This document shows positions 40,542 to 55,952 of a DNA stretch of 64,000 nucleotides, piece by piece; position 1 is the first letter of the stretch; every line of letters starts with the position of its first letter. The position numbers and the translations under genes were made by a program. A model generated the notes under the pieces. The model had not been told where the DNA came from and searched no databases. It worked only from the letters and a program-made list of their open reading frames with translations. The stretch is taken from contig CAZWEZ010000003.1 of assembly GCA_964632795.1 (NCBI GenBank), forward strand, positions 3,922 through 67,921. Direction: 5' to 3'. Source of the stretch: an uncultured Thalassospiraceae bacterium (GTDB taxonomy: Bacteria; Pseudomonadota; Alphaproteobacteria; Rhodospirillales; 2-02-FULL-58-16).

Positions 40542-40570
40542 GCCTTTGTATTGAGATTGTATTGCCGAAA

Positions 40571-40592
40571 CCGGGTTTGCGCGCAAACCCGG
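40571..40592. promoter_or_regulatory. Perfect 22-bp palindrome in the divergent intergenic region
   Basis: ccgggtttgcg|cgcaaacccgg, 30 nt downstream of the first palindrome. Confidence 0.35.
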
Positions 40593-40679
40593 CGCCGTTC
40601 CGGAATGGGGCGGATCGTCGTCGAGGTGACGGCAGGCGTTATTGAGAGTTCAGTCCTTGAAGGGAGGCTGTCGAGAATC

Positions 40680-41936
40680 ATGAAAAAATTGATCACCGCA
40701 CTGGCGGCGGGGTTTGCCCTGGTCGTCCTACTGGTCCAGCCGGGCGTGGCCGCCGAAAAACTCAAGGTCGGCGTTCTGGCGACCCTCGAAGGCACTTACA
40801 CCGTCCTCGGCGAGGACGGCGTGCGTGGCTTCAAGGTCGCGCTCAAGCAGTTCGGCGGCAAGGCCGGCGGACGGGAAATCGAGGTCATCATCGGGGCGAC
40901 CGACGCCAGCCCGGATTCGGCCATCCGCGCGGTCCGCAAGCTGGTCGAGCAGGACAAGGTCGACTTCATCATCGGCCCGCTTTCCGGCTCCGAGGGCATC
41001 GCCGTCAAGAACTACGCCCATACCCAGCCCCAGGTGACCATCCTGAACGGCATCTCGGCCGCCCAGGAGACCACCTACGTCGATCCGGCGCCCAATTACT
41101 TCCGCTTCAATACCGACGGCGCCCAGTGGTCGGCCGGTTTGGGTAAATACGTCTACCACGACAAGGGCTATCGCACGGTGGCGACGATCGGCGAGGACTA
41201 CTCCTTCGTCTACACCCAGGTCTTTGGCTTCGTCCTCGAGTTCTGCGGCGAGGGCGGAATCATCACCGAACGGCTCTGGGTGCCTCTGGGGACCAAGGAC
41301 TTCGCCTCGATCATCGCCGCGCTGCCCGACGACGTCGACGCCATCTACCTCGGGCTCGGCGGCGGCGACGCGGTCAACTTCCTCAACCAGTACCAGCAGG
41401 CCGGCGGCGACGCCGCCCTGATCGGCGGCTCGATCATGGCCGACCAGACGGTGATGTCCTCCAAGGGCAGCGCCAAGAAGGCGCTGATAGGCACCCCCGC
41501 CTCGGGGCCCCAGGCCGACACCTGGGACAATCCCAAATGGCAGGCTTACGTCAAGGCCTACCAGGACGCCTTCCCACCCGAAGAGCGGTTCCCCGGCCCG
41601 TCGCTGCTGGCGACCGGCTACTACAATGCCGCCACCGCCGCCTTCACCGTGCTCGACATGATCGGCGGCGACCTCAGCGACGGTCACAAGAAGTTCCGCG
41701 CCGAACTGTCCAAGCTCGAGCTCGACGCGCCCAACGGAAAGATCACCCTCGATCACAACCGTCAGGCCATCGGCAACAACTTCGTCACCGAGGTCTTCGA
41801 GGACGCCAACGGCGAATTGATGAACAAGCTGGTCAAGATCATCCCCAACGTGAACCAGACGCTGGGCATGGACCCGGCCACGTTTGCCACGATCGGCCTC
41901 CCCGGACGCGATATTCCGGAGTGCAAGAAGTACTGA
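40680..41936 (+). CDS. ABC transporter substrate-binding protein, type I periplasmic binding fold (LIV/HAAT family)
   Basis: Signal peptide MKKLITALAAGFALVVLLVQPGVAA, then EKLKVGVLATLEGTYTVLGEDGVRGFKVAL...FIIGPLSGSEG. The long upstream in-frame extension (38703-40679) is antisense to the TPP gene and is rejected. Confidence 0.85.
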   Translation: MKKLITALAAGFALVVLLVQPGVAAEKLKVGVLATLEGTYTVLGEDGVRGFKVALKQFGGKAGGREIEVIIGATDASPDSAIRAVRKLVEQDKVDFIIGPLSGSEGIAVKNYAHTQPQVTILNGISAAQETTYVDPAPNYFRFNTDGAQWSAGLGKYVYHDKGYRTVATIGEDYSFVYTQVFGFVLEFCGEGGIITERLWVPLGTKDFASIIAALPDDVDAIYLGLGGGDAVNFLNQYQQAGGDAALIGGSIMADQTVMSSKGSAKKALIGTPASGPQADTWDNPKWQAYVKAYQDAFPPEERFPGPSLLATGYYNAATAAFTVLDMIGGDLSDGHKKFRAELSKLELDAPNGKITLDHNRQAIGNNFVTEVFEDANGELMNKLVKIIPNVNQTLGMDPATFATIGLPGRDIPECKKY

Positions 41937-42054
41937 TCCGGATCGACTGACGGAGGATCGGCGCCGTGTCCCCCTTGGGGCATGGCGCCGCCTCCGCCAG
42001 CCGTGACTTTCCGGTGATGGCCGCGCGGGACCTCTGGGGGGGGAGCGAAGCCTT

Positions 42055-43188
42055 ATGTCCTTGATCGGTTATCTGACCAAGATCCACTTCGCCGAGGGTA
42101 TTGTCGGCGACGTCCTGCCCTGCGAACTGGAACGGCTCGGCATTCGGCACGTGTTCCTGGTGACCGACGAGGGCGCCGTCGAAAACGGCCTTTTCGAGCG
42201 CGTCAAACCGGCCATCCCGACCAACATTTCGGTCACCCTTTACGATCAGACTCCGGAGAACCCGACCGAATCCGCATCGATCGCCGCAACCGAAATCTAC
42301 GACCTCGAAGGCTGCGACGGAATCATCGCCCTGGGAGGCGGATCGGCGATCGACCTCGCCAAGGTAGTCGGGCTTCTCGCCAGCCATGACGGCCGACTGT
42401 CCACCTACGCCGTGGACGAGGGCGGAATCACCAGGATCCGCGACGTGTTGCCGCCGATCATCGCCATCCCGACGACCGCCGGCACCGGTTCGGAGGTCGG
42501 ACGCTTCGCCCTCATCGTGGATAACGCCGGGCGCAAGCTCGGCCTGGTCAGTCCCCATCTCATCCCGATGGTCGCCATCTGCGATCCCGAGTTGACGGTG
42601 ACCCTGAATCCGTTCCTGACCGCGGCCACGGGGATGGACGCCCTGACCCATTGCATCGAAACCTTCATCGCCACGGCCTATAACCCGCCGGCCGACGGAA
42701 TCGCTCTCGACGGCCTCAAGCGGGCCGCCGCGAACATCGAACTGGCGGTCGAGAACGGCAGGAACATCCACGCCCGGCGCGAGATGATGGCGGCGGCGAT
42801 GGAAGGGGCGCTGGCGCTTCAGAAGGGGTTGGGCGGGGTTCACGCGATCAGCCACGCCTTGTACGACATCGACGGCCACCGGTTCCATCACGGCACCCTG
42901 AACGCCGTCCTGCTGCCCTATGTCCTCGAATTCAACGAGCCGGCCGTCGGGGAGCGTTACGACGACCTGAAACTGGCCATGAAACTGAACAACGGCGCCG
43001 ACCTGGGCGACCACATCAGGCGCCTCAACGAACGCATCGACCTGCCGGCGTCGCTGTGCGAAATGGGGGTCGACCTGGCGGCGATCGACCGCGCGGCGCC
43101 CCTCGCCGAGCGGGACCACACCAACGCCACCAACCCGCGGAAGGCCTCGGCGGCCGACTATCGCGACATCATGCGCGCGGCCTTGTAA
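42055..43188 (+). CDS. Iron-containing (group III) alcohol dehydrogenase
   Basis: IIALGGGSAIDLAK, PTTAGTGSEV and GVHAISHAL...HHGTLNAVLLPYVLEFN are the canonical Fe-ADH motifs. Confidence 0.85.
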   Translation: MSLIGYLTKIHFAEGIVGDVLPCELERLGIRHVFLVTDEGAVENGLFERVKPAIPTNISVTLYDQTPENPTESASIAATEIYDLEGCDGIIALGGGSAIDLAKVVGLLASHDGRLSTYAVDEGGITRIRDVLPPIIAIPTTAGTGSEVGRFALIVDNAGRKLGLVSPHLIPMVAICDPELTVTLNPFLTAATGMDALTHCIETFIATAYNPPADGIALDGLKRAAANIELAVENGRNIHARREMMAAAMEGALALQKGLGGVHAISHALYDIDGHRFHHGTLNAVLLPYVLEFNEPAVGERYDDLKLAMKLNNGADLGDHIRRLNERIDLPASLCEMGVDLAAIDRAAPLAERDHTNATNPRKASAADYRDIMRAAL

Positions 43189-43334
43189 GGGGCCAGCGGT
43201 TTGCAATTTGCTTTCGATGCCGGGTACGGGTTAGGCTGAGCCTCCATAAGTAATAAATCAAAGGGCTCCGAGGCAATAAAATTACTCCAAGGGCTCTTTC
43301 GGGCAGGGGCAGGCCTGCCTTTGGGAGGCGGGGA

Positions 43335-44165
43335 ATGAGTACAGCCATTTCAGTCTATCATGGAGAGTTCGGACGCGCCTCGCTCTACTACCTCGACAAA
43401 CCCATCATCAAGCACGCCCATCGCGAAGCCCACCTGACGTTCCACCTTCAGGGCACGCCCGCGGGAATGGAAATATCCGACAAGCCCTGTCGGGTCTGGG
43501 AGCAACAGGGTGCGGCGGTCAATTCGTGGCAGCTTCACAACTACAATCCGGGCGTAAGGAACGCCGGGCAACACCTGCTGGTTATGTACATCGAGCCGTC
43601 CTGGTTCGTCGATTACAGCCGCTCGTTTACCGGCTCGCTGAAGTTCGGCCGCTCCGAGATCGAAGTGACGCCGGCGATCGGCAACCTGATCCAGAAGGTC
43701 GTCTCCTTGCTCCTCGACGGCGGGACGACGGATATGTTCGACGGCTATCTCTTCAAGTTGACCGACGAAAGCTTCACCCAGTCCCATCAATGGACGCCGG
43801 GGCCCCCCCAGCTCGATCTCAAGCCGAAGATCAACGACTTCCGGGTTCGCAAGTCGATCAAGCTGATGACCGAGAACATCGGCAACGAGATCGACATGGG
43901 GAAGATCGCCACCGAATCAGGCCTCTCGCGGCCCCATTTCTTCAAGCTGTTCCGCGACCAGATGGGGGTGACGCCGAAGCTCTACTGGAACACCATCCGC
44001 ATGGAAAAGGCGCTGTACGACCTGACCGAAACCCCCAAGTACATCACCGATATCGGCTTCGACCTGGGGTTCTCGTCGCAAAGCAGTTTCTCGCGGTTTT
44101 TCGCCCTCAACGCGGGCATGTCGCCGACCGACTACCGGCGCGTCGCCCACGTCCTCAATTCCTGA
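43335..44165 (+). CDS. AraC-family transcriptional regulator
   Basis: The C-terminal double HTH reads IATESGLSRPHFFKLFRDQMGVTPKLYWNTIRMEKA...ITDIGFDLGFSSQSSFSRFFALNAGMSPTDYRR. The RBS gggagg is upstream. Confidence 0.85.
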   Translation: MSTAISVYHGEFGRASLYYLDKPIIKHAHREAHLTFHLQGTPAGMEISDKPCRVWEQQGAAVNSWQLHNYNPGVRNAGQHLLVMYIEPSWFVDYSRSFTGSLKFGRSEIEVTPAIGNLIQKVVSLLLDGGTTDMFDGYLFKLTDESFTQSHQWTPGPPQLDLKPKINDFRVRKSIKLMTENIGNEIDMGKIATESGLSRPHFFKLFRDQMGVTPKLYWNTIRMEKALYDLTETPKYITDIGFDLGFSSQSSFSRFFALNAGMSPTDYRRVAHVLNS

Positions 44166-44552
44166 ATTTCCGACGGCTCCCGCCACGGGCCCCCGGGGCC
44201 ATGATCGGCGGCGGCGACGAGCCCCGGGAGCGGCTTCCCGGAGTGCCGGGGATTCCCCCGCATTAGCGCGCCATGCAACGGTTTCGGGGATTCCGGGCGG
44301 CGCCATCGCAGACTCCGGACTCGCTAGAAAAAGACTACATGGTATGTTCTCATCCAAGGCCATGTTCTAGTTTGTTATTCAAGACGCGCGATCGGACAAG
44401 CGCGGAACAACGACGGGGAGGAACGAATTGGGAATGTATCGGTCCCGGACAACATCCCCCTGTCGTCGAGCGCCGGCCGCCGGATCGGCCGTTCGGGCCG
44501 GGCGACGGTTTCCCTTGCGCCCGATCATGGGACAGCCGCCGGGAGGGACGGG

Positions 44553-45563
44553 TTGATCAAGTTCGCCGAACGGCATCCCATCTGGTCGATCATCATTTTC
44601 CTGGCCGTCATCGTGCTCCTGTGGCTGATCGTCGCGCCGTGGCCCAAGGAACTGACCTCGGTGATCGGGCGCAAGAAGGTCTTCCTCAACGCGCTGTTCA
44701 ACGGCATCACCCTCGGCGGGCTCTATTTCCTGGTCGCCAGCGGGTTCACCCTGATCTTCGGCCTGATGCGGAACGTCAACCTGGCCCACGGCTCGCTCTA
44801 CCTGCTGGGCGGATACATCGGCTACACGATCTCCGATTTGACCGGGTCCTGGCTGTTCAGCTTCGTGGTCGCGTTCATCGCCATGGCCCTGCTCGGCATC
44901 GTCCTCCAGCTCGTCGTCTTCCGCCGCATGGAAGGCGAAGACCTGCGCCAGACCCTGGTCACGATCGGCATCTCGATCGTGCTTGCCGATGTGTATCTCT
45001 GGATCTGGGGCGGTGACTTCTACCAGATCCTGGCCCCCGACTGGCTGTTCGGACCGATCAAGCTGCCGCTGATCACGGCGGTCAAGAGTTCGGGCCAGGT
45101 GGTCTACCTGAAGTACCCGATGGTCCGGATCTTCATCTTCTGCGCCTCGGCCGTCATCGGCGTCCTGATCTGGCTGGTCCTCAACAAGAGCCGGATCGGA
45201 ATGATGGTCCGGGCCGGCGTCGACGACCGCGAGATGCTGTCCGCCTCGGGGATCAGGATCCAGTACGTGTTCGTCGCCGTGTTCGCCTTCGGGGCCGGGC
45301 TGGCGGGAATCGCCGGGGTGGTCGGCGGGACTTTCCAGTCCCTGGCCCCGGGCGAGGACATGCGGTTCCTGCTGTCCTCGCTGGTGGTGGTCATCGTCGG
45401 CGGCATGGGGAGCATTCCCGGCGCCGCCCTGGGGGCCCTGCTGATCGGCCTCTCCGAGCAGTTCGGGTCGGTCTATATGCCGACCTACGCGGTGGTCCTC
45501 ACCTTCCTGATCATGGTCCTGGTCCTGGCCTTCAGGCCCCAGGGACTGTTGGGCAACCGGTGA
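44553..45563 (+). CDS. Branched-chain-amino-acid-type (HAAT) ABC permease, LivH-like
   Basis: LNALFNGITLGGLYFLVASGFTLIFGLMRNVNLAHGSLYLLGGY is the LivH signature region. The ORF opens at TTG 44553, which adds a ~45-aa N-terminal extension, and GTG 44661 is an alternative start. Confidence 0.8.
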   Translation: MIKFAERHPIWSIIIFLAVIVLLWLIVAPWPKELTSVIGRKKVFLNALFNGITLGGLYFLVASGFTLIFGLMRNVNLAHGSLYLLGGYIGYTISDLTGSWLFSFVVAFIAMALLGIVLQLVVFRRMEGEDLRQTLVTIGISIVLADVYLWIWGGDFYQILAPDWLFGPIKLPLITAVKSSGQVVYLKYPMVRIFIFCASAVIGVLIWLVLNKSRIGMMVRAGVDDREMLSASGIRIQYVFVAVFAFGAGLAGIAGVVGGTFQSLAPGEDMRFLLSSLVVVIVGGMGSIPGAALGALLIGLSEQFGSVYMPTYAVVLTFLIMVLVLAFRPQGLLGNR

Positions 45564-46663
45564 GAGCGATGGCACGGCAAAGACACCACGGAGAATCGCC
45601 GACGCCCGGCCAGGGGGAGCTGCCGGTCTGGATCCGCAAGATCCACCCGGTGGTCTGGCTGGTCATCCTGTTCCTTCTGTTCCTGCCGACGTTCACCAAC
45701 AATTTCATCCAGCTCCAGATCTTCGGCTGGAGCTTCATCCTCGGCATGATCGCGCTGAGCCTGATGTTCCTGGCCGGCTACGGCGGGATGATATCGCTGG
45801 TCCAGATGACGGTCGCCGGGTGCGCCGGATACATGGCGGCGATCTTCGGCGACAGCGCCGTGACCACGATCAGCCTGGGTTGGGTGTGGTGGGTGTCCCT
45901 CCCCATCGCCCTGGCCATCGCGGTGGTGTTCGGGACCATCTCGGGCGCCCTGGCGGTGCGCACCGAAGGCATCTACACGCTCATGATCACGCTTGCCATC
46001 GCCGCCGCGTTCTTCTACTTCACCCGCCAGAACTACGTCATCTTCAACGGCTTCAGCGGCTTCAACGCGCTCAAGCCGCCGGCCGTCTTCGGCGTCGATT
46101 GGCGCCATCCGACGGTGTTCTACTACCTGACCCTGTTCTGCGCCGGCTTCAGCTTCCTGGCCGTGCGCTACGTCTCGCGCTCGCCCTTCGGCCTCGCCCT
46201 CCAGGGGATCCGGGACAACGCCCGGCGGATGTCGGCGCTCGGCTTCAACGTGACCGCCCACCGCATCGCCGCCTATTCCTTCGCGGCGCTGATCGCCGGC
46301 GTCGCCGGGATCCTGCTGTCGTGGTTGAACGGCCAGATCTCGCCCGGGACCGCGGGCATCGGTCCGGTGATCGACATCCTGGTGATCGCCGTGATCGGCG
46401 GCCTGCGCCATCCGATCGGGCCCTTCATCGGCGCCCTGGTCTACGTCCTGCTCAAGACCTTCGCCATCGACCTTCTCCAGGGACTCGGTTTCGACAGCCT
46501 ACGCTTCAACTTGGTGGTCGGTCTCGGCTTCCTGGCCATCGTCTTCTATTCTCCGGACGGCGTTCTGGGGCTGTGGGAGCGCTGGCGCCGTTCGAACCGC
46601 CTATTGCGCAAGCGCGACGACCTGCCCCGGCCGGCCGGGGCCGCCACGGGAGACGAGTCGTGA
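45560..46663 (+). CDS. HAAT-family ABC permease, LivM-like
   Basis: ALSLMFLAGYGGMISLVQMTVAGCAGY and the later IGGLRHPIGPFIGALVY. The GTG start overlaps the LivH stop (GTGA). ATG 45569 is an alternative start. Confidence 0.8.
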   Translation: MRAMARQRHHGESPTPGQGELPVWIRKIHPVVWLVILFLLFLPTFTNNFIQLQIFGWSFILGMIALSLMFLAGYGGMISLVQMTVAGCAGYMAAIFGDSAVTTISLGWVWWVSLPIALAIAVVFGTISGALAVRTEGIYTLMITLAIAAAFFYFTRQNYVIFNGFSGFNALKPPAVFGVDWRHPTVFYYLTLFCAGFSFLAVRYVSRSPFGLALQGIRDNARRMSALGFNVTAHRIAAYSFAALIAGVAGILLSWLNGQISPGTAGIGPVIDILVIAVIGGLRHPIGPFIGALVYVLLKTFAIDLLQGLGFDSLRFNLVVGLGFLAIVFYSPDGVLGLWERWRRSNRLLRKRDDLPRPAGAATGDES

Positions 46664-47442
46664 AGACGGTCGCCGAAAGATTGTCGGTGGCCGGGGACGC
46701 TTATGCGCTGGAGCTGAACGGCGTGAGCCGGCTGTTCGGGGCGCTGACCGCGCTGGCGGACATCAACATGCAGGTCCGGGCCGGAGAGAAGCGGGCCGTA
46801 CTCGGTTCCAACGGCGCCGGCAAGACCACGCTGTTCAACTGCATCACGGGGGACTATTACCCGAGCGCCGGACGCATCCGCTTCTTCGGCCAGGACGTCA
46901 CCCGCATCCCGCCCCACGAGCGAATCCGCAAGGGGTTGCGACGGACCTACCAGACCTCGCTGCTGTTCCATAATCTGAGCGTTCTCGACAACGTCTATCT
47001 GGCCTGCCGGGGGGTGTCCCGGGGGCGCTTCTCGCTGTTTAGGACGCGGCGCTCGGACGCCATGATGCATTCGGCCGAGGAACTGGTCGAGGCCGTCCAC
47101 CTCCTGGACGTCAAGTTCCAGAAGGTGGGCGAGCTGAGCTACGGCCAGCAGCGTCAGTTGGAGATCGCCCTGGCCCTCGCCGTGGTCCCGCGTTTCGTGT
47201 TGTTCGACGAGCCGGCGGCCGGCCTGTCGCCGCCCGAACGCGCCGAGTTGATCGAGATTCTCAAGTCGCTTCCCGCCCACATGGGGTTCATCATCATCGA
47301 GCACGACATGGATGTCGCCCTCCGGGTGGTCGAATCGGTGACCGTGATGCACAACGGCTCGATCTTCAAGGAAGGCTCGCCCGAGGAGATCGAAGCCGAT
47401 CCGGAGGTCCAGGAGTTGTACCTGGGTAAGAGACATGGCTGA
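46660..47442 (+). CDS. HAAT-family ABC ATP-binding protein, LivG-like
   Basis: [23 protein letters not shown], Walker [10 protein letters not shown], signature [15 protein letters not shown], and Walker [12 protein letters not shown]. The GTG start overlaps the LivM stop. Confidence 0.85.
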
Positions 47443-49693
47443 GATCGGGCGCAGCCGGACCAGGGAGCCCGACGCGGTCCTCAGGATCAAGGACCTGCAC
47501 GTCTATTACGGCCACTCCCATGCCCTGCAGGGGGTCAACCTGTCCCTCGAGCACAGCTCCCTTTCGGTGGTCGGGCGCAACGGCATGGGCAAGACGACGC
47601 TGTGCAATTCGATCATGGGCCTGGTCAGGTCCTCGGCCGGCTCGATCCGCTACGAATTGAACGAACTCAGGGGATTGGCGCCCAACCAGATCGCCAACCT
47701 GGGCATCGGCTACGTGCCCCAGGGACGCAGACTGTGGCCGTCGCTGACGGTGGACGAGCATCTGCGTCTGTGCTCGCGCGGCGGCAAGCAGGTGGCGTGG
47801 ACGGCCGAGCGCGTCTACTCCATGTTCCCGCGCCTCGCCGAGCGCCGCAACAACAAGGGCAGCCAGTTGTCCGGCGGCGAACAGCAGATGCTGGCGATCT
47901 CGCGAGCCCTGCTCGGCAACCCCAGCCTGCTGATCATGGACGAACCGACCGAGGGCCTGGCCCCGGTCATCGTCGCCCAGGTCGAGGAGATGCTGCTGAC
48001 GCTGGTCGAGGAGGAGGACGTCGCGGTCCTGGTCATCGAGCAGAACATCGGCGTCGCGACGGCGGTCTCGGAGAACGTCGCGATCATGGTCAACGGCCGC
48101 ATCAACCGGATCATGGACTCCGCCCAGCTGGCCGCCGATCGCGACCTCCAACAGCGCCTCCTCGGCGTCGGGCGCCATGGCGAGGAGGCGATCGAGGAAC
48201 TGGAGCCGGTCGCCGACAGCGAGCCGGAGCCGGAGGGCGCGACCCGCCTCCCCCGCCGCCCGGAGAAGACCGAGGTCAAGGTGTTCATGTCCAACCCGAC
48301 GCCGCCGACCCGCTGGTCGCAACCGGCCGAACGGGCGGCGATCATGGCGGCGGCCAAGACCGTCGGACCGGCCGCCGAGGACGAAGACCTTCCCCAAGTC
48401 CTCCGCATGGAGCCATCCTCGCTCGGCGACCTTCGGGGCGACGTCGCCCTGGTCGTCGGCACCCTGGACACCAAATCGAAAGAACTGAAGTACATCCGGG
48501 ATTGCCTGACCGCCTACGGCGTCAAGGCCAAGCTGGTCGACCTGTCGACCAGCGGCCGGCCATCGATCGCCGAGGTGCCGCCCCACCAGGTGGCGACCTA
48601 CAACCGCAAGGGGCCGAACGCGATCTTCACCGGCGATCGGGGGTCGTCGGTCCGCGAGATGGCGATCGCCTTCGAGAACTGGATCGTCCGCCAGCGAGGC
48701 ATCGCCGGCATCATCTCGGCCGGCGGCAGCGGCGGCACGGCGCTGGTCACCCCGGGGATGCGGCGCCTGCCGGTGGGCATCCCCAAGGTGATGATCTCGA
48801 CCGTCGCCTCGGGCGACGTCAAGAAGTACGTCGGGGGCACCGACATCATGATGATGCACTCGGTGACCGACGTTCAGGGGCTCAACCGGATCTCCCGCCA
48901 GGTCCTCGCCAACGGCGCCCACGCGCTGGCCGGGATGGTCATCGGCCGGCCGTCGGCAAGCCCTTCCCGGGCCGACGGCCGCCAGGTCGAGGAAACCGAC
49001 CTGCCGGCCGTCGGCCTGACCATGTTCGGAGTCACCACGCCCTGTGTCCAGCAGGTCACGGCGGCACTGGAGAAAGACTTCGACTGCCTGGTCTTCCACG
49101 CCACCGGGACCGGCGGCCAGTCGATGGAGAACCTGGTCGATTCCGGTATGCTGGCCGGGGTCATCGACATCACGACCACCGAGGTCTGCGACCTGCTGGT
49201 CGGCGGGGTGTTCGCGGCCACCGAGGACCGGTTCGGCTCCATCGTCCGCTCCCGCCTGCCCTACGTCGGCTCGTGCGGCGCGCTCGACATGGTCAATTTC
49301 GGCCCCCGCGACACCGTACCGACGCAGTTCCAGGGGCGGAACCTCTACGAACACAACCCGCAGGTCACCCTGATGCGGACCACCCCCGAGGAAAACGCCA
49401 GCTTCGGGCGCTGGATCGGCGAACGGCTGAACAGGATGGACGGGCCGGTCAGGTTCTTCATTCCCGAGGCTGGAGTCTCGTTGCTCGACGCCCCGGGACA
49501 GCCGTTTCACGACCCCCAGGCCGACCAGGCGTTGTTCGCCGCCCTGGAGGAGACCGTGACCCAAACGGGCAAGCGCCAGCTCATCCGCCTGCCTTTCAAC
49601 GTCAACGATCCGTCGTTCTCGGAAGCTATCGTCACCGCCTTCCTGTCGATCGCCGGCAGGCCGGCGGCGCGACGGCGGAAAGGGAGGAAGTAA
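47435..49693 (+). CDS. Fusion protein: LivF-like ABC ATPase (aa ~14-248), an acidic/Pro-rich linker (aa ~249-336), and a UPF0261 / Tm-1 N-terminal-like domain (aa ~337-745)
   Basis: LivF part: [59 protein letters not shown]0261 part: [74 protein letters not shown]. It is a single uninterrupted 752-codon frame. Confidence 0.8.
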
Positions 49694-49696
49694 GGG

Positions 49697-50530
49697 ATGC
49701 CGTTATTCGAGCGTGAGGCGCTGGTGGAACGGTTCCGCGACATGGTACGGCGCGGCGAACCCATCATCGGGGGCGGCGCCGGGATCGGCCTGTCGGCCAA
49801 GTGCGAGGAGGCCGGCGGGATCGACCTGATCGTGATCTACAACTCGGGGCGCTACCGGATGGCCGGGCGCGGGTCGCTGGCCGGACTGATGTCCTACGGC
49901 AACGCCAACGAGATCGTCATGGAGATGGCGGCCGAGGTGCTGCCGGTGGTCGAGCGGACCCCCGTCCTGGCCGGGGTCAACGGTACCGACCCGTTCTGCA
50001 TCTTCGACAGGTTCCTCGACGACCTCAGGGCGGTCGGCTTCTCGGGGGTCCAGAACTTCCCCACCGTGGGGCTGATCGACGGCACCTTCCGCGCCAACCT
50101 GGAGGAGACCGGGATGTCCTACGGCCTGGAGGTCGACATGATCGCCCTCGCCCACCAAAAGGACATGCTGACCACGCCCTACGTGTTCGGCGAGGAAGAC
50201 GCCGCGGCGATGGCCAGGGCCGGGGCCGACATCATCGTCTGCCACCTGGGGCTGACCACCGGCGGTTCGATCGGCGCCGAGACCTCCCACAAGCTGGAGG
50301 ACTGTCCGGCGGTCGTCGACGCCTGGGCCGAGGCCGCCATGAAGGTCAACAAGGACACCATCGTGCTGGTCCACGGCGGACCGGTCTCGATGCCCGAGGA
50401 CGCCGAGTTCGTCCTCGCCAACACGCAATGCTGCCACGGTTTCTTCGGCGCCTCCTCGATGGAGCGCCTGCCGACGGAAGTCGCGCTGACCGAACAGACG
50501 AGGAAGTTCAAACAGATCGGCGCCGGCTGA
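49697..50530 (+). CDS. TIM-barrel protein of the PEP-hydrolase-like / Tm-1 C-terminal-like family (COG5564 type)
   Basis: [56 protein letters not shown]...[16 protein letters not shown]. This family normally partners UPF0261. The gene starts 3 nt after the fusion gene's stop. Confidence 0.75.
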
Positions 50531-50555
50531 CGGAGCGAGAGAAGGAGGATCGGTT

Positions 50556-53447
50556 ATGACGGGTCAAATGATAGGCACCTTCATTTTGTGGCTGATCGTC
50601 ACGGTCGTGGTGATCGCGGTGATCGTCTATCTGCTGAACTGGCTGTACCACCGCTCGTCGAAGGAGGTCTCCTTCGTGCGGACCGGTTTCGGGGGACAAC
50701 GCGTGGTGATCAACGGCGGGGCGTTCGTGCTGCCGATCATCCACGAGATAACGCCCGTCAACATGAACGTGCTGCAGATGGAGGTGATCCGCGACCGCGA
50801 CCACGCCCTGATCACCAAGGACCGCATGCGCGTCGACATGGTGGCTGAATTCTATGTCCGGGTGTCGCCGGACGTCGAATCGGTGGCCGTCGCGGCGGCC
50901 ACGCTCGGCCGGCGGACCTTGGAACCGGGCAGCCTGCACGACCTTCTGTCGGGCAAGTTCGTCGGCGCGCTGCGCTCGGCGGCGGCCGAGATGACCATGG
51001 AGGAGATGCACGAGCAGCGCAACGACTACGTCGCCTTGATCCGGAGCGCCGCCTCCGAAGCCCTGGCCAAGAACGGCCTCGAGCTTGAAACCGTGGCGAT
51101 CACCGAACTGGACCAGACCGACCTCGAATACTTCAACCCGTCGAACAGGTTCGATGCCGAGGGCCTGACCCGCCTGATCGAGGAGACCGAATCGCGGCGC
51201 AAGCTGCGCAACGACATCGAGCAGGATACGGCGATCAAGATCCGGACCCGCAATCTGGATGCCGAGAAGCAGACCCTGGACATCGAGCGGGAAAGCGAAA
51301 CCGCCCGCCTGGATCAGGAACGCGAGATCGAGATCCTCCGGGCCACCCAGCGCACCGAGCTTGTCCGCAAACGCGCCGAGCAGGAAACCCTGGCCGAACA
51401 GGCCGAGATCGCCGCCCACGAGCAGACGGAAAAGGCTCGTATCACCCAGGAACGGGCGATCACCGAATCGCGGATCGCCAACGAGGAGGAGACCCAGCGC
51501 CGCGAGATCGAGCGGACCCGCGCCATCGAGGCGGCCGAGATCGCCGCCCGCGAGGAAACCGAACGGGCGCGGATCGAACAGGAACGCAAGATCAACGAAT
51601 CCCGGATCGTCAACGAGGAGGAGATCCAGCGCCGCGAGATCGAACGGACCCGCGTCGTCGAGTCGGCCGAGATCGAGGCCCGCGAGGCGACGGAAAAGGC
51701 GCGGATCGAACAGGATATGACGCTGGCCGCCGAGCGCATCGCCACCGAACAGAGAACCCGGACCCTGGAGATCGCCCGCAACCGGGCGCTCGAGGAAGAC
51801 GAGATCGCGGCCCAGGAGGCCACCGAGGCGGCCCGCATCGCCCAGGTCAAGAAACTGGCCGCCAAACGGATCTCCAGCGAGCAGGAGACCCAGAACCTGG
51901 AGATCGAACGCAACCGGACGCTCGAGGAGGCCGAGATCGCCGCCCGCGAGGCCACCGAGGCGGCCCGCATCGCCCAGGAACTGAAGATCGCCGCCGAGCG
52001 GATCGCCAGCGAACAGGAGACCCAGAGCCTGGAGATCGCCCGCAACCGGGCCATCGAGGAGGCCGGGATCGCCGCCCGCGAGGCCACCGAGGCGGCCCGC
52101 ATCGCCCAGGAACTGAAGATCGCCGCCGAGCGGATCGCCAGCGAACGCGAGACCCAGAACCTGGAGATCGAGCGAAACCGGACCATCGAGGAAGCCGAGA
52201 TCGCCGCCCGCGAGGCCACCGAGGCGGCCCGCATCGCCCAGGAGAAAAAGATCGAAGCCGAGCGGATCGCCAGCGAGCAGGCGACCCAGAGCCTGGAGAT
52301 CGCCCGGGCCCAGGTGCTCGAGGAAGCCGAGATCAAGAAGCAGGACCGGCTGGAGCGAGCCCGCATCGCCGCCGAACTGGCCATCGAGAAGGACCGTATC
52401 GCATCGACGACGACCCGCGAGGTCATCGAGGTCGATCACCGCAAGAAGGTCGAGATCGCCGAGAAGGACCGCGAGATCGAGGTCTCCGCCAAGCAGATCG
52501 AGTTCACCGAGGCCGAGAGGAAAGTCCGCACCGCCGATATCGCGGCCAAGCTGGAGATCGACAAGGCAGACGTCGCCCAGGTCCGGGCCATGGACCAGGT
52601 CCGCATCGAACGCGAACAGTCCCTCGAACAGCTCGAGATCTCCAAACGCCAAGTCTACGAGGAAGGGGAGATCACCTCGCACGAAGATGTCGAACGGGCC
52701 CGCATCGCCTCCGAGCTCGGCCTCGACCAGGCGCGCATCATCCGCGACCGCGACGTCAAGAGGATCGACATCGAGCGCGAGACGGTGGTCGAGACGGCGG
52801 AGATGGAGAAGACCATCGCCCTGTTCGAGAAATCCAAGGAACGTTCCGCGGCCCAGGCCGAGGCGGAAGCCGCCCGGGCCAAGGCCGAACAGGCCCAGGA
52901 AAGGGTGGCCACCGTGCGCGAGGAGGAAGTGGCCAAGCGCATGCACTCCATCGACCTGATCATCGCCGAGAAGGACGCCGAGATGAAGAAGATCGCCGCC
53001 GCCGCCGAGAAGGTCCGCGCCGAGGTGGCGGCCGAGGCCCAGCGCCAGATCAACGAGGCCGAGAACGTGCTCACCGACGAGGCCCGCGTCTCGCTGTACA
53101 GGCGCAAGCTGCTCGACAAGATCGAAGGCATCGTCCGCGAGAGCGTCCGGCCGATGGAGAAGATCGAGGGGATCAACATTCTCCATGTCGAGGGCCTGGC
53201 CGGCGGCGGCGGGGGGGAGGCCAGGAACATGACCGACGAGGTGATGGATTCGGCGTTGCGCTACCGGGTCCAGGCGCCGTTGATCGACAGCCTGCTCAAG
53301 GACATCGGCATCGAGGGGGGCAGCATCTCCAAGATGGGCGATGTCATCCGCAGCGCCCGCGACATGCAGAGCATCGCCAAGGTGGTCGAGGCCGATGCCA
53401 AGAAGGACGGCCAGACCCCCGAAGGCGGCGGGGATTCGGGGGGCTGA
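50556..53447 (+). CDS. Flotillin / YqiK-type SPFH (band-7) domain protein, greatly elongated by an internal 44-aa repeat array
   Basis: N-terminal TM helix (IGTFILWLIVTVVVIAVIVYLL) and SPFH core (FVRTGFGGQRVVINGGAFVLPIIHEITPVNMNVLQMEV...ALITKDRMRVDMVAEFYVRV). A long E/A/R/I-rich helical region follows, then a flotillin-type C-terminus (LRYRVQAPLIDSLLKDIGI). Confidence 0.85.
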   Translation: MTGQMIGTFILWLIVTVVVIAVIVYLLNWLYHRSSKEVSFVRTGFGGQRVVINGGAFVLPIIHEITPVNMNVLQMEVIRDRDHALITKDRMRVDMVAEFYVRVSPDVESVAVAAATLGRRTLEPGSLHDLLSGKFVGALRSAAAEMTMEEMHEQRNDYVALIRSAASEALAKNGLELETVAITELDQTDLEYFNPSNRFDAEGLTRLIEETESRRKLRNDIEQDTAIKIRTRNLDAEKQTLDIERESETARLDQEREIEILRATQRTELVRKRAEQETLAEQAEIAAHEQTEKARITQERAITESRIANEEETQRREIERTRAIEAAEIAAREETERARIEQERKINESRIVNEEEIQRREIERTRVVESAEIEAREATEKARIEQDMTLAAERIATEQRTRTLEIARNRALEEDEIAAQEATEAARIAQVKKLAAKRISSEQETQNLEIERNRTLEEAEIAAREATEAARIAQELKIAAERIASEQETQSLEIARNRAIEEAGIAAREATEAARIAQELKIAAERIASERETQNLEIERNRTIEEAEIAAREATEAARIAQEKKIEAERIASEQATQSLEIARAQVLEEAEIKKQDRLERARIAAELAIEKDRIASTTTREVIEVDHRKKVEIAEKDREIEVSAKQIEFTEAERKVRTADIAAKLEIDKADVAQVRAMDQVRIEREQSLEQLEISKRQVYEEGEITSHEDVERARIASELGLDQARIIRDRDVKRIDIERETVVETAEMEKTIALFEKSKERSAAQAEAEAARAKAEQAQERVATVREEEVAKRMHSIDLIIAEKDAEMKKIAAAAEKVRAEVAAEAQRQINEAENVLTDEARVSLYRRKLLDKIEGIVRESVRPMEKIEGINILHVEGLAGGGGGEARNMTDEVMDSALRYRVQAPLIDSLLKDIGIEGGSISKMGDVIRSARDMQSIAKVVEADAKKDGQTPEGGGDSGG
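51405..52460 (+). repeat. Eight in-frame tandem 132-bp (44-aa) repeat units inside the flotillin gene
   Basis: Units start at 51405, 51537, 51669, 51801, 51933, 52065, 52197 and 52329. The consensus is EIAAREATEAARIAQELKIAAERIASEQETQ(S/N)LEI(A/E)RNR(A/T)IEEA. Units at 51933 and 52065 are nearly identical at the DNA level over their first ~85 nt. More degenerate copies flank the array. Confidence 0.85.
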
Positions 53448-53450
53448 GCG

Positions 53451-53888
53451 ATGGCCAAGATATATTGTTCCAACGTGATCAACGTCCCGGTCGACCGGGT
53501 GTGGGCGCAGATCCGCGATTTCAACGGCCTGGCGGCGTGGCATCCGCTGATCGCCGAGAGCACCATCGAACAAGGCGAGCCACCCGACAAGGTCGGCTGC
53601 GTGCGCAACATGAAGCTGAAGGACGGAGGGATCATCCGCGAGCGGCTGCTGGCCCTGTCGGACTACGACTATTCGTGCACCTACGCCATCGTCGAATCGC
53701 CGATGGGGGTCGACAACTACGTCGCCACCCTGAAGCTGATCCCGGTCACCGACGGCGAGCGCACGTTCGGCGAATGGTCGGCCGAGTTCGACTGCGCGCC
53801 CGATCGCGAGGCAGAGCTGGTCCGGAGCATCGGCGGCGATGTCTTCCAGGGCGGCCTCGATGCCCTCAGGAAGAAGCTCGGGGGTTGA
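53451..53888 (+). CDS. SRPBCC-superfamily (polyketide cyclase/dehydrase, START-like) protein
   Basis: INVPVDRVWAQIRDFNGLAAWHPLIAES...GIIRERLLALSDYDYSCTYAIVESPMGVDNYVATLKLIPVTDG. It is a paralog of 54165-54605 and starts 3 nt after the flotillin stop. Confidence 0.75.
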   Translation: MAKIYCSNVINVPVDRVWAQIRDFNGLAAWHPLIAESTIEQGEPPDKVGCVRNMKLKDGGIIRERLLALSDYDYSCTYAIVESPMGVDNYVATLKLIPVTDGERTFGEWSAEFDCAPDREAELVRSIGGDVFQGGLDALRKKLGG

Positions 53889-53894
53889 GGCGCA

Positions 53895-54160
53895 AGTGTC
53901 CTGTTTCCTAAGCTCGTGGTATTTAGGATCGCTTTTCCCGGCCTCCGGGCAGGAGGCGGCGCGCAGGCGATGCCGGCCCATCGGCAAGCGTCGCCGACGC
54001 CCTCCGGAGGCCGGGAAAAGCGACCGTTCGGCGGCCATACATGACCCTCGGACGTCGTCGCGCGGCCCTTGTGATGCGACGGCATCACGGCGGACCACGC
54101 TCCTAACCGAGTGTCATGTATGGCCGTCCTAAATGCCACGAGCTTAGGAAACAGGACACT
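53895..54160. repeat. MITE-like element with nested inverted repeats between the two SRPBCC paralogs
   Basis: The outer arms are agtgtcctgtttcctaagctcgtggtatttaggat (53895-53929) and gtcctaaatgccacgagcttaggaaacaggacact (54126-54160), reverse complements apart from a few mismatches at the inner end. The inner arms are cgcttttcccggcctccgg (53930-53948) and ccggaggccgggaaaagcg (54004-54022), which pair perfectly. Confidence 0.7.
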
Positions 54161-54164
54161 AGCC

Positions 54165-54605
54165 ATGGTGAGGGTGGAGAAAAGCACCATCGTCGAGGCG
54201 CCGATCGACCGGGTGTGGGACGTCCTGCGCGATTTCAACGGCCACGACCGCTGGCATCCGGCGATCGCCGAAAGCGAGATCGAGAACGCGCGGCCCTCGG
54301 ACATGGTCGGCGCGGTCCGCAAGTTCAGGCTCGAGGACGGCGCCGAACTGCGCGAACGGCTCCTCGCCCTGTCGGACTGGGACCAGACCTTCAGCTACTG
54401 CCTGCTGGAGACCCCGATCCCGCTGTTCAACTACGTCGCCCACGTGGCCCTCAAGCCGGTCACCGACGGCGACCGCACCTTCTGGCTCTGGCGCTCGGAG
54501 TTCACCACGCCCCAAGGAAAGGAAAGGGAACTCGCCAGGGTCGTCGGCGAGGACATCTACATGCAGGGCTTCGCCGCCATCAAGAAGATGCTGGAACGCC
54601 ATTGA
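54165..54605 (+). CDS. SRPBCC-superfamily protein (paralog 2)
   Basis: VEAPIDRVWDVLRDFNGHDRWHPAIAES...ELRERLLALSDWDQTFSYCLLETPIPLFNYVAHVALKPVTDG. The ATG at 54165 lies inside ORF 54111-54605. Confidence 0.75.
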   Translation: MVRVEKSTIVEAPIDRVWDVLRDFNGHDRWHPAIAESEIENARPSDMVGAVRKFRLEDGAELRERLLALSDWDQTFSYCLLETPIPLFNYVAHVALKPVTDGDRTFWLWRSEFTTPQGKERELARVVGEDIYMQGFAAIKKMLERH

Positions 54606-54621
54606 GGCCAGGGAGGGCAGA

Positions 54622-55434
54622 ATGCCGGTTACGGTGAAGACGTTCGATCGGCTCCGCGACGCCGTCTCGGCGCTGAGTTCCGATTCCGGGGCCCGCTTCC
54701 TGGGCGGCGGTACCCTGCTCGTGAGGCGCCTCAATGAAGGACGAAGCGAGGCCTCGACCCTGATCCGCTCGACGGACCGGGCGATCGGCGAGATCCGGCC
54801 CTCGGGCAGCCGCGTCTTCATCGGCGCCGGGGCGACCATGGCCCGGATCGCCGCCCACCGCGACCTCGGCTTCCTGAAGGCGGCCGCCAACGCGGTCGGC
54901 GGTCCGGCGATCCGCACCATGGCCACCGTCGGCGGCAACATCTGCGCGCCCTATCCCTTCGGCGACTTCACGGTGGCCCTGCTGGCGCTGGAGGCCAAGG
55001 TGTCGATCCAAAGCGGCTACAACAAGCGGGACGTGTCCCTCGAGGACTTCCTGGCCGGGCGCGGCAGGGACAACCGCACGGTCATCTCCGGGGTGACCTT
55101 CCGCCGCCCGGATTCGGAGCGGGACTTCCGCTTCCTCAAGGTCACCCGGAGCCGGCCCAAGGGGGCGGCGGTGCTGGTCATCGCCACCAACCTGAACCTG
55201 CGGGGCGGGCGGATGTCGTCGCCGCGCGTCGCCTACGGCAACATGGCGCCGGGTCCGATCCGCGCCAAGGCTCTCGAGGCGGCGCTCAACGGCAAGACGC
55301 TGGACAAGGCCGGGATCGCGCCGGCCCTCGCGGTGGCGACCGACGGCTGCGCTCCCGTGAGCGATCCATTCGCCACCGAGCAGTACCGCCGTGACGTGCT
55401 GCCGGTCTACCTCGAACGCCTGCTGCTGGGCTGA
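54622..55434 (+). CDS. Xanthine-dehydrogenase-family FAD-binding subunit (CoxM/NdhF-like), enzyme 1
   Basis: RFLGGGTLLVRRLN, IGAGATMARIA and GGPAIRTMATVGGNIC match the FAD_binding_5 pattern. The RBS gggaggg is upstream. Confidence 0.8.
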   Translation: MPVTVKTFDRLRDAVSALSSDSGARFLGGGTLLVRRLNEGRSEASTLIRSTDRAIGEIRPSGSRVFIGAGATMARIAAHRDLGFLKAAANAVGGPAIRTMATVGGNICAPYPFGDFTVALLALEAKVSIQSGYNKRDVSLEDFLAGRGRDNRTVISGVTFRRPDSERDFRFLKVTRSRPKGAAVLVIATNLNLRGGRMSSPRVAYGNMAPGPIRAKALEAALNGKTLDKAGIAPALAVATDGCAPVSDPFATEQYRRDVLPVYLERLLLG

Positions 55435-55453
55435 AAGGACCTGCGAGGAAACG

Positions 55454-55939
55454 ATGAGTCTGATCCCCGTACAATTCAAACTCAACGGTGAGGACAAGGC
55501 CGAATTCGTCGACAGCACGGCGACCCTTCTCTCGGTGCTGCGCGACAAAATCGGTCTGCTGTCGCCCAAGGCCGGCTGCCAGCAGGGCGGCTGCGGGTGC
55601 TGCACGGTCCTGGTCGACGGCGCCCCCCAGCTGGCCTGCCTGACCCTGGCCGTGACGTGTGAGGGCAAATCGGTCGAGACCGTCGAGGGGATCGGTCGGA
55701 ATGGCGCGCTGCACCCGCTGCAACAGGCCTTCATGGACCACTTCGCGGCCCAGTGCGGGTTCTGCACCACCGGCATGATCATGGCCGCCAAGGCGCTGCT
55801 GGACAGCAACCCGAACCCGACCCGCGAGGACGTGGTCGAGGCCATTTCCGGCAACCTCTGCCGCTGCACCGGCTATCAGCCGATCATCAATGCCGTCCTC
55901 GCCGCCGCCGGCGGGGGCGACGGACATCGGACCTCCTGA
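55454..55939 (+). CDS. Xanthine-dehydrogenase-family [2Fe-2S] subunit (CoxS/NdhS-like), enzyme 1
   Basis: GCQQGGCGCCTVLVDG (plant-type cluster) and QCGFCTTGMIM...NLCRCTGY (second cluster). Confidence 0.85.
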   Translation: MSLIPVQFKLNGEDKAEFVDSTATLLSVLRDKIGLLSPKAGCQQGGCGCCTVLVDGAPQLACLTLAVTCEGKSVETVEGIGRNGALHPLQQAFMDHFAAQCGFCTTGMIMAAKALLDSNPNPTREDVVEAISGNLCRCTGYQPIINAVLAAAGGGDGHRTS

Positions 55940-55952
55940 GGAGACCGCGGCC

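Follow-up and report, generated by a model that had tools for sequence, protein, structure and literature searches.

The subject of this analysis is a string of co-directional genes in a 64,000-nt stretch of DNA (the whole of which is called the window below) from an uncultured Thalassospiraceae bacterium. In this string, the genes of an ABC importer, whose second ATPase is fused to a Tm-1-like UPF0261 domain, are followed by those for a TIM-barrel protein, a flotillin, two SRPBCC proteins and a molybdenum (Mo) hydroxylase. Judged from the sequences, the gene set is one conserved module, the domains of which carry the residues expected for activity. The seven open reading frames (ORFs) between 44553 and 53888, to which the original prediction had confined the string, are probably the front half of one conserved, AraC-controlled catabolic module.

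All seven ORFs lie on the + strand, as had been claimed and as the ORF list bears out, and their GC content at third codon positions is 0.88-0.94, as in the real genes of this window of 62-70% GC. Pfam agreed with the families first assigned to them (LIV-type importer, UPF0261/TIM-barrel pair, flotillin and SRPBCC), as well as with the solute-binding protein (SBP), Fe-dependent alcohol dehydrogenase (Fe-ADH) and AraC regulator placed just upstream (40680-44165). According to the ORF list, the third ORF ends at 47442 and has its real start at 46660. Concerning the junctions, the overlap at 46660-46663, the 8-nt overlap at 47435-47442 and the gaps of 3, 25 and 3 nt were found as described, whereas the GTGA overlap at 45560-45563 differs with the gene call: an independent call starts LivM at 45569, leaving a 5-nt gap and no GTGA overlap, the junction being tight either way. 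The string is not limited to seven ORFs, since the co-directional run reaches at least 62592, with gaps of 16, 19, 13, 6 and 1 nt and two ATGA-type overlaps beyond 53888. Nor is the SRPBCC gene single, as first described; there are two, parted by an inverted repeat. A consensus scan of 40000-56000 gave no promoter-like sites on the + strand, and the one terminator-like site on this strand that falls in the string, at 45649 in the LivM gene, does not exceed what shuffles give. The features are listed in Table 1.

Table 1. Positions of the genes and sequence elements of the string and its flanks, with the basis of each assignment
Feature	Position	Strand	Basis
Solute-binding protein, Peripla_BP_6, HAAT family, periplasmic	40680..41936	+	Pfam, E 1.5e-51; gene call agrees
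Fe-dependent alcohol dehydrogenase resembling 4-hydroxybutyrate dehydrogenase	42055..43188	+	Pfam Fe-ADH
AraC-family regulator	43335..44165	+	Pfam HTH_18, E 7.2e-21
Upstream motif AAGACTN5GGTATG, AraC-LivH intergenic region	44331..44346	+	MAFFT alignment
Permease 1, LivH-like	44553..45563	+	Pfam BPD_transp_2, E 1.6e-32
Permease 2, LivM-like; alternative start 45569	45560..46663	+	Pfam BPD_transp_2, E 6.2e-28
ATPase 1, LivG-like	46660..47442	+	Pfam ABC_tran, E 3e-30, and BCA_ABC_TP_C
ATPase 2, LivF/UrtE-like::UPF0261 fusion, 752 aa	47435..49693	+	Pfam, NCBIfam and PDB matches
Linker motif S-N-P-x-P-P-T-R-W of the fusion, residues 286-294	48290..48316	+	Alignment of fusions
PEP-hydrolase-like TIM barrel	49697..50530	+	Pfam PF09370
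Flotillin, 963 aa	50556..53447	+	Pfam Band_7 and Flot
SRPBCC1	53451..53888	+	Pfam Polyketide_cyc2, E 7.7e-24
Nested palindromic element, 272 nt	53892..54163	.	Arm mapping and folding
SRPBCC2, paralogue of SRPBCC1	54165..54605	+	Pfam, E 4.4e-20
Mo hydroxylase, FAD subunit	54622-55434	+	Pfam
Mo hydroxylase, 2x[2Fe-2S] subunit	55454-55939	+	Pfam
MoL1, first half of split Mo subunit	55953-57332	+	Pfam; PDB 3HRD_A
MoL2, second half of split Mo subunit	57339-58337	+	Pfam
Second set, Mo subunit::CoxG fusion, 979 aa	58339-61278	+	Pfam, COXG E 2.5e-25
Second set, FAD subunit	61275-62102	+	Read from sequence alone, without domain search
Second set, FeS subunit	62089-62592	+	Read from sequence alone, without domain search

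Conservation and variants of the module

The window proteins were compared by tblastn with related loci, one genome being taken per species. These loci number at least 80 and are mostly from Bradyrhizobium, with others from Roseiarcus, Xanthobacteraceae, Sulfitobacter, Tateyamaria, Geminicoccaceae, Denitrobaculum, Aquibaculum and a Burkholderiales metagenome-assembled genome (MAG); gene order was counted in the 74 listed loci with at least 9 kb downstream. In all 74, the fusion gene is followed on its own strand, at the expected offsets, by the genes for the TIM barrel, flotillin, SRPBCC1 and SRPBCC2, and in 73 of them the four Mo-hydroxylase genes come next. The 74 genomes span Bradyrhizobium, Roseiarcus, Xanthobacteraceae, Rhodobacterales and Geminicoccaceae, and examples of the module were also found in beta- and gammaproteobacteria. 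Median gaps are 0-25 nt at most junctions, a crude estimate from the longest ORFs that is negative for SRPBCC1/SRPBCC2, and the same gene order is present in eight loci with independent gene calls or annotation. The families thus co-occur in a fixed order, which refutes a lack of co-occurrence in related genomes, and the link to the adjacent Mo hydroxylase proposed in the original prediction is borne out in the same 73 loci. That prediction had not recognised the combination as a known system, and no paper describing the module was found in the literature either, nor any with both 'flotillin' and 'SRPBCC'; UPF0261 is named in eight papers, and in a Bradyrhizobium paper, flotillin is named solely in a proteomics list.

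Two forms of the module were distinguished. Variant A, the form present in the window, ends with the Mo hydroxylase, followed in related loci by CoxD-like AAA and then CoxE-like VWA genes, as far as gene calls or annotation extend. Variant B, found in Mesorhizobium, Variovorax paradoxus, Denitrobaculum and one MAG, has no Mo enzyme. It keeps the permeases, SBP, LivG, fusion, flotillin and SRPBCC1, together with the TIM barrel in three of the four loci, and an MDR domain (ADH_N + ADH_zinc_N) is joined to its second SRPBCC domain, the best family match being NADPH:quinone reductase in the one locus scanned (L093). Upstream of variant B lie FAA-hydrolase, alpha/beta-hydrolase and amidohydrolase genes (3/4 loci with upstream gene calls or annotation). 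Since flotillin and SRPBCC are kept in this variant without a Mo enzyme, the pair follows the transporter-kinase fusion and not a given oxidoreductase.

Two further loci are devoid of flotillin. On a megaplasmid of Thermomicrobium roseum (L107; NC_011961.1, 5875-21920), a HAAT transporter with an unfused LivF is followed 12 nt later by UPF0261 and then by the TIM barrel. This locus also encodes a cyclase-family protein, phosphoenolpyruvate (PEP)/pyruvate-binding and PEP-utilising proteins, an FAA hydrolase and a Mo subunit of the xanthine dehydrogenase (XDH) family; both kinase types are present, and the locus may represent a precursor state. In Sinorhizobium fredii NGR234, an unfused pair (y4oU/y4oV region) lies beside a sugar-type ABC transporter and a sigma-54 activator. 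From these two cases, the association of UPF0261/TIM with ABC import is broader than the module. By gene content, the fusion and flotillin appear together in the loci seen.

Domains of the encoded proteins

The HAAT importer is complete according to Pfam, with two BPD_transp_2 permeases, two ABC ATPases (LivG/LivF type) and a Peripla_BP_6 SBP, the gene of which lies upstream in nearly all related loci in the tblastn comparison. The nearest solved relatives of the SBP include 4EY3, 4EVQ, 4EVS and 4F06, which we take to be the benzoate/4-hydroxybenzoate binders of Rhodopseudomonas palustris. Ligand data have been published for RPA0668 and RPA0985 (PMC3223731). No LivJ/K-type branched-chain specificity was indicated by the LIV-binding model, against which the SBP scored 39 bits for a cut-off of 477. 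The branched-chain amino-acid label of the transporter is probably wrong.

The fusion protein consists of an ATPase (residues 1-244), a linker of about 90 residues and a Tm-1-like UPF0261 domain (339-740). Pfam places ABC_tran at 31-172 (E 1.7e-26), the UPF0261 N domain at 339-503 (PF06792, 1.3e-57) and the UPF0261 C domain at 524-739 (PF23189, 2.7e-92). In NCBIfam, the ATPase half scores 215.6 bits with UrtE vs. 140.4 bits with LivF, while the UPF0261 half exceeds the cut-off of NF002673 (606 vs. 520 bits). In an alignment of 19 fusions, the Walker A, signature and Walker B motifs do not vary. As for the UPF0261 half, it aligned end to end both with tomato Tm-1 (3WRY, E 4e-99) and with MarK (9MPY, E 5e-54). 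The ATP-contact Lys (position of Tm-1 K20 and MarK K16) is natively present, the acceptor-site residues Gly195, His219 and His304 of MarK are retained, and the motifs GTLDTK, MFGVTT, FHATG and HNPQ, which cover these ATP-contact and acceptor positions, are invariant in the 19 fusions. MarK (Saro_1862) is an ATP-dependent kinase acting on phenolic hydroxyls of aromatics at 64 per min, the first catalytic activity of a UPF0261 protein, and its E16K substitution, by which the Tm-1 K20-type Lys is introduced, increased activity about 1600-fold (PMC12624787). The earlier designation of 'Tm-1-like enzyme pair', which stands as to families, had not drawn on the MarK kinase precedent (PMC12624787).

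The best 120 homologues listed, each representing a 90% identity cluster, are all full-length fusions with 63-77% identity. In GenBank/RefSeq, the fusion is named 'ABC transporter permease' in Variovorax paradoxus (L109; CP063167.1, 10950-13202) and Yoonia (L110; NZ_CP151764.1, 10998-13160), and several other homologues at NCBI carry this name; as the fusion has no membrane domain, this is a systematic misannotation.

In the AlphaFold model of the fusion, the per-residue confidence (pLDDT) is below 50 across nearly all of residues 245-332. This linker contains the motif S-N-P-x-P-P-T-R-W, of which N287, P291, T292 and W294 are invariant in the 19 aligned fusions. The pattern N-x(2-4)-P-T-[RK]-W occurs in 117 of the 120 closest homologues listed, and the [TN]-R-W core is retained in the variant-B and the beta- and gammaproteobacterial fusions. 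From this conservation, the motif is a candidate docking site; docking onto the fusion protein itself was set aside in view of the low pLDDT of the linker.

The TIM barrel matched PF09370 with 431.9 bits (cut-off 33.8; E 9.8e-130) and PDB entry 2P10 (Mll9387) with an E-value of 4e-122 over 269 residues. UPF0261 and TIM-barrel domains are fused in plant Tm-1, the plant genes being of bacterial descent (PMC5028733), and UPF0261 adjoins the TIM barrel in every bacterial locus seen but one, Mesorhizobium L091, where none was called. Because the two are fused in the plant protein and adjoining in the bacterial loci, they would be expected to work together.

The flotillin carries Band_7 (PF01145, E 7.5e-15) and Flot (PF15975, E 2.8e-31) domains, and is laid out as a hydrophobic helix (about 5-30), an SPFH domain (41-193), repeats (282-633), the Flot domain (804-919) and a Gly-rich tail. 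By inspection, without a topology predictor, residues 5-30 (IGTFILWLIVTVVVIAVIVYLLNWLY) are hydrophobic and followed by HRSSK, and were read as an N-terminal membrane anchor; because positive charges follow this single N-terminal helix, the positive-inside rule predicts that the bulk of the protein is probably cytoplasmic. The stalk is made up of about eight repeats of 44 residues, in which Glu, Ala, Arg and Ile abound and an Ile recurs every ~11 residues, corresponding in the DNA to 6.8 copies of a 132-bp repeat with 81% matches (51400-52302). Among the 74 genomes, the orthologues measure 661-1286 aa, and that of Variovorax has 562 aa, so that the 'giant' size reflects a variable repeat expansion. 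The protein is not equivalent to FloT in NCBIfam (31 bits vs. a cut-off of 700 for NF058507). An NfeD domain was found neither in the window locus nor in those related loci for which genes had been called or annotated, an adjoining NfeD-family gene being presumably typical of bacterial flotillin operons. All five flotillin homologues that were looked up from a search with the flotillin as query, independently of the fusion gene, lie between a TIM-barrel or fusion gene and SRPBCC genes.

Sequence searches for solved relatives of the flotillin gave just spurious coiled-coil matches to a Rab-family protein. Two longer proteins, one joining flotillin and SRPBCC (P0127; L089, 983-4378) and one joining TIM barrel and flotillin (P0222; L090, 1256-4285), were set aside: both come from contigs with fragmented neighbouring genes, one of these contigs being labelled with 2.14x coverage, and are probably frameshift artefacts.

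SRPBCC1 and SRPBCC2 (145 and 146 residues) are 48% identical, and SRPBCC1 is ~70-75% identical across homologues. The AlphaFold model of SRPBCC1 is a complete helix-grip domain (pLDDT 94) with nothing left over, the nearest folds being uncharacterised bacterial SRPBCC proteins, followed by plant PYR/PYL receptors. Neither protein has a membrane anchor of its own, their lengths being those of the full domain. In Pfam, they match Polyketide_cyc2 only (SRPBCC2 also Polyketide_cyc), with no match to COXG (PF06240). Their membership of the CoxG family was thus ruled out by Pfam and the fold search, the functional analogy being kept. An indirect hint of quinone binding or electron relay comes from variant B, in which SRPBCC2 is fused to a quinone-reductase-like domain.

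Finally, Pfam identified the FAD, 2x[2Fe-2S] and split Mo subunits of the first Mo hydroxylase on four consecutive genes. Among solved structures, MoL1 is matched best by 3HRD_A (E 3e-72), the split large subunit of the nicotinate dehydrogenase from Eubacterium barkeri, and no NCBIfam equivalog cut-off was reached by the enzyme (best pucD, 299 bits vs. 784). The gene order SRPBCC, SRPBCC, FAD, FeS, Mo is that of a Mo hydroxylase with separate SRPBCC.

Possible function and competing explanations

We propose, with moderate confidence and by analogy with characterised systems, that the module encodes an AraC-controlled importer of an aromatic or heteroaromatic compound with a tethered MarK-type kinase, the flotillin and SRPBCC proteins holding the oxidoreductase at the membrane. 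The importer would take up an aromatic or N-heteroaromatic compound bearing or gaining a ring hydroxyl, which the tethered UPF0261 domain would phosphorylate with ATP as the compound leaves the transporter, so that it is trapped and activated; this step is modelled on MarK (lignin-derived phenolics) and on the presumed kinase of 3-hydroxypyridine dehydrogenase. The Mo hydroxylase would oxidise the ring, and the TIM barrel would act on an aryl or enol phosphate, possibly removing the phosphate. The two SRPBCC proteins, with a quinone or an intermediate as their hydrophobic ligand, would link the soluble oxidoreductase to the membrane, while the flotillin would keep transporter, kinase and oxidoreductase in one membrane patch. 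The substrate class is suggested by the proximity of the SBP to aromatic-acid binders and of MoL1 to nicotinate dehydrogenase. In the original prediction, the string as a whole was suggested to be a membrane-microdomain-organised uptake and processing module feeding the adjacent Mo hydroxylases; the link to the Mo enzyme stands, but variant B indicates that flotillin and SRPBCC are not mere accessories of it.

The closest precedent, judged by analogy, is the 3hpd cluster (HpdA1-4) of Ensifer adhaerens HP1, in which the hydroxylation of 3-hydroxypyridine requires both a PEP-utilising/pyruvate phosphate dikinase (PPDK)-type kinase pair and a separate SRPBCC subunit, the kinase being of the phenylphosphate-synthase type and thought to act on the ring hydroxyl of the substrate (bioRxiv 10.1101/2020.01.08.898148). 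Both systems combine a multi-subunit XDH-family Mo hydroxylase with a separate SRPBCC protein and kinase genes. However, the kinase of the module is of the unrelated UPF0261/Tm-1-like fold and is fused to an ABC-importer ATPase, and the module has two anchorless SRPBCC proteins, a split Mo subunit, a TIM barrel and a flotillin; neither flotillin nor transporter fusion is reported for 3hpd. No PEP-utilising/PPDK-type domains were found among the string genes scanned with Pfam, and we infer from the analogy that the UPF0261 kinase would take the role of that pair.

MarK shares with the module the two-domain fold, the ATP-contact Lys and Gly195/His219/His304. In Novosphingobium aromaticivorans, it is a free-standing homodimer of the acetovanillone carboxylation pathway with no TIM-barrel partner described, and four of its substrate-contact residues differ from those of the module, the UPF0261 domain of which is much closer to plant Tm-1. 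As in Tm-1, this domain is combined with a PEP-hydrolase-like TIM barrel, with alignment from end to end. In the plant protein, a viral-replication inhibitor, both domains are fused, whereas in the module UPF0261 is carried by the ATPase and the TIM barrel is encoded by a separate gene.

Known bacterial flotillins are general scaffolds, mostly encoded beside an NfeD gene, and to our knowledge they have mostly been treated as such, their specific clients being poorly defined. The flotillin of the module resembles FloT/YqiK in its SPFH domain, Glu/Ala-rich coiled coil, C-terminal Flot domain and N-terminal membrane anchor, but it is encoded inside a catabolic operon, without an NfeD gene, and has a stalk of variable 44-residue repeats. 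One report links flotillin microdomains to the function of an ABC-importer ATPase in S. aureus (FloA/FhuC; PMC10147376).

CoxG binds menaquinone and passes electrons from carbon monoxide dehydrogenase to the respiratory chain (PMC12202499), and CoxG-like proteins anchor a soluble dehydrogenase to the membrane (PMC11962113). Like CoxG, SRPBCC1 and SRPBCC2 are small SRPBCC proteins encoded beside an XDH-family enzyme; unlike it, they match Polyketide_cyc2 in place of COXG and have no membrane anchor. The nicotinate dehydrogenase of E. barkeri (NdhF/S/L/M, 3HRD) similarly has four subunits with the Mo subunit split in two, whereas the hosts of the module are aerobic or facultative Proteobacteria; we know of no transporter, kinase, flotillin or SRPBCC partner in the E. 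barkeri system.

Several points weigh against the proposal of a kinase-bearing importer with a membrane-held oxidoreductase. In Mesorhizobium L091, no TIM barrel was called between the fusion gene and flotillin. T. roseum has the chemistry genes without flotillin, which is therefore not required for the chemistry, and the sugar-type transporter beside the NGR234 pair means that an aromatic acceptor is not guaranteed. The acetovanillone contacts of MarK are changed in the pairwise alignment (T196V, F283M, I285N, H348L), and a different acceptor is thus expected. Also, SRPBCC1 and SRPBCC2 stand outside the CoxG family, lack an anchor and have uncharacterised SRPBCC proteins and PYR/PYL receptors as their nearest folds, and the role given to the TIM barrel on aryl or enol phosphate is a guess.

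A stronger version of this proposal, which seems rather unlikely to us, would make the module a membrane-bound catabolic machine of a new kind, an ABC importer with vectorial phosphorylation, that is, group translocation by the kinase tethered to the ATPase. The flotillin would then form a cytoplasmic cage or fence over the transporter outlets, its height set by the number of 44-residue repeats, and confine the activated intermediate, the SRPBCC carriers and the oxidoreductase, with [TN]-R-W as the docking point. If this were true, no bacterial flotillin before it would have had its clients defined genetically and a metabolic purpose assigned, and the module would point to the ancestral biochemical role of the plant Tm-1 family.

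Among the alternatives, it is improbable, though worth weighing, that UPF0261 and the TIM barrel are a ligand- or ATP-sensing regulatory appendage of the ATPase, by which cytoplasmic substrate or product would gate import (trans-inhibition). C-terminal regulatory domains are found on the nucleotide-binding subunits MalK, MetN and ModC, and UPF0261 occupies this same C-terminal site; however, the known domains pack directly on the ATPase dimer, whereas the linker of the fusion is long and disordered. The NGR234 pair adjoins a sigma-54 activator, and the TIM-barrel family was first named 'TIM-barrel signal transduction protein' (PMC5028733). Tomato Tm-1 works by ATP-bridged binding and not by known catalysis, and in MarK the ATP and acceptor sites are ~25 A apart, its catalysis being not yet structurally explained; yet MarK shows an ATP-dependent turnover of 64 per min (PMC12624787), and neither the ATP-contact Lys nor the acceptor His/Gly residues vary among the fusions. 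A regulatory role would, moreover, leave the obligatory TIM-barrel, flotillin and SRPBCC genes unexplained.

It appears likewise doubtful that the locus holds two units, transporter and UPF0261/TIM on the one hand, and flotillin, SRPBCC and oxidoreductase (for anchoring and electron transfer) on the other, which would share an operon and a pathway without forming a transporter-flotillin complex. CoxG-type SRPBCC proteins do serve oxidoreductases directly, SRPBCC2 is fused to an oxidoreductase in variant B, the second Mo subunit of the window bears its own CoxG domain, and T. roseum has transporter, UPF0261, TIM barrel and Mo subunit without flotillin. Against such a division, flotillin was always accompanied by the LivF::UPF0261 gene (5/5 look-ups, and 74/74 listed loci in reverse) and persists when the type of oxidoreductase changes. 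No flotillin occurs with the Mo hydroxylase of T. roseum or the unfused pair of NGR234, and the appearance of the fusion thus coincides with that of flotillin. As for an ordinary LIV (branched-chain amino-acid) importer with unrelated passenger neighbours, it is extremely improbable: the permeases and ATPases match LIV/HAAT Pfam families and PGAP names follow, but the ATPase half scores better with UrtE than with LivF, the nearest relatives of the SBP bind aromatic acids, and passengers cannot be reconciled with so strict a synteny, which involves 8-10 non-transport genes and extends across proteobacterial classes.

None of the families in the module is new, and a transporter and a Mo hydroxylase are often found together in catabolic clusters. 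What is new is the obligatory dedicated flotillin, the transporter ATPase fused to a Tm-1-like kinase domain and the anchorless SRPBCC pair. With the proposed importer, kinase and membrane-held oxidoreductase, the probable clients of one flotillin subfamily can be named, namely the ABC importer that bears the kinase domain, the SRPBCC pair and the oxidoreductase. The module is carried by culturable bacteria that are common in soil and sea, among them many Bradyrhizobium species, Variovorax, Mesorhizobium and Sulfitobacter, so that the question of the scaffold can be tested directly. The UPF0261/TIM pair, the bacterial ancestor of tomato Tm-1, would gain a second physiological context besides MarK, that of transport and Mo-dependent hydroxylation, in parallel to the unexplained kinase requirement of 3-hydroxypyridine dehydrogenase.

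Flanking genes, palindromic elements and other parts of the window

In most related loci, the AraC gene lies directly 5' of the permease genes. When the ~260 nt 5' of LivH from 12 loci were aligned with MAFFT, the main conserved block was AAGACTN5GGTATG, visible by eye in 6 to 9 of them, with a CTAG/CTTG-like element slightly downstream; given its conservation, the block is a candidate operator or promoter element. The Fe-ADH, which scored 495.5 bits with NCBIfam NF058672 for a cut-off of 500, had a tblastn match in just 17 of the 88 related loci compared, and is thus an optional accessory gene. Further upstream, a divergent gene (38532-40406, - strand) encodes an acetolactate-synthase-like thiamine pyrophosphate (TPP) enzyme, under every equivalog cut-off, the N-terminus of which is an odd low-complexity run (KYQSSTYQGGSYQGGSYQSSSYQST); among the related loci, tblastn found this gene solely in the closest relative (L007, 83% identical). 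An attempt to deduce the substrate from the accessory genes (the 4-hydroxybutyrate-dehydrogenase-like Fe-ADH, the TPP enzyme and the variant-B hydrolases) gave no coherent pathway.

The inverted repeat noticed after 53888 is a real and strong structure, but not the natural end of a unit. It consists of a 64-nt outer arm pair around two hairpins with 20-nt arms, and sits exactly between the SRPBCC1 stop codon and the SRPBCC2 start codon. The 285-nt stretch 53886-54170 folds into a Y shape, with a long stem and two hairpins (-200.4 kcal/mol, z -16). In every related locus with gene calls, SRPBCC1 and SRPBCC2 are separated by 2-35 nt and the 272-nt element is absent, which makes it a secondary insertion. 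A reading as terminator was rejected, as no T run follows the element and relatives lack it. Rfam gave nothing credible in 40000-56000, with two sub-threshold miRNA models (E 0.14 and 0.64). The element may act within the operon in mRNA processing or stability, or as an attenuator.

An exact 24-mer of the element had no match in JGI metagenome contigs, and an 18-mer had 12 single-strand matches, none of those loci matching the element by blastn. The sole further copy in the window is a 49-nt miniature palindrome (CTAGTGTCCTGGATCCTAAATGCCACGAACTTAGGATCCAGGGCACTAG; 7733-7781), related to the ends of the 272-nt element and nested in a second inverted repeat, the 36-nt arms of which (7685-7720 / 7823-7858) lie at the 3' end of a gene for an amidohydrolase. 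These nested palindromes look like a small, genome-specific REP- or MITE-like repeat family.

Directly after the first Mo hydroxylase, the second set (58339-62592) is lineage-specific. No orthologue of its 979-aa Mo subunit was present in the related loci compared, and its position is occupied, in the relatives readable that far, by CoxD-like AAA genes, followed in three loci by CoxE-like VWA genes. No CoxD- or CoxE-like gene was found among the window ORFs scanned.

The region 1-22700 contains genes for two MFS transporters, an amidohydrolase, an Opp/Dpp-type peptide ABC transporter, a triple RidA-domain protein, an arginase-family enzyme, a creatinase/prolidase and a fumarate-reductase-like flavoprotein. 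These genes do not recur in the related loci examined; in the window itself, a creatinase/M24 gene adjoins the string. Between 23000 and 35000, GC content is lower (0.53-0.56 vs. 0.62-0.70 elsewhere in the window), and the genes there encode a beta-eliminating lyase, an amidinotransferase/DDAH-like protein, an enolase-superfamily enzyme, M20 and M24 peptidases, an Asp/Glu-racemase-like protein, a polar amino-acid ABC transporter and a GntR regulator. This region may be a horizontally acquired island for the catabolism of amino-acid derivatives.

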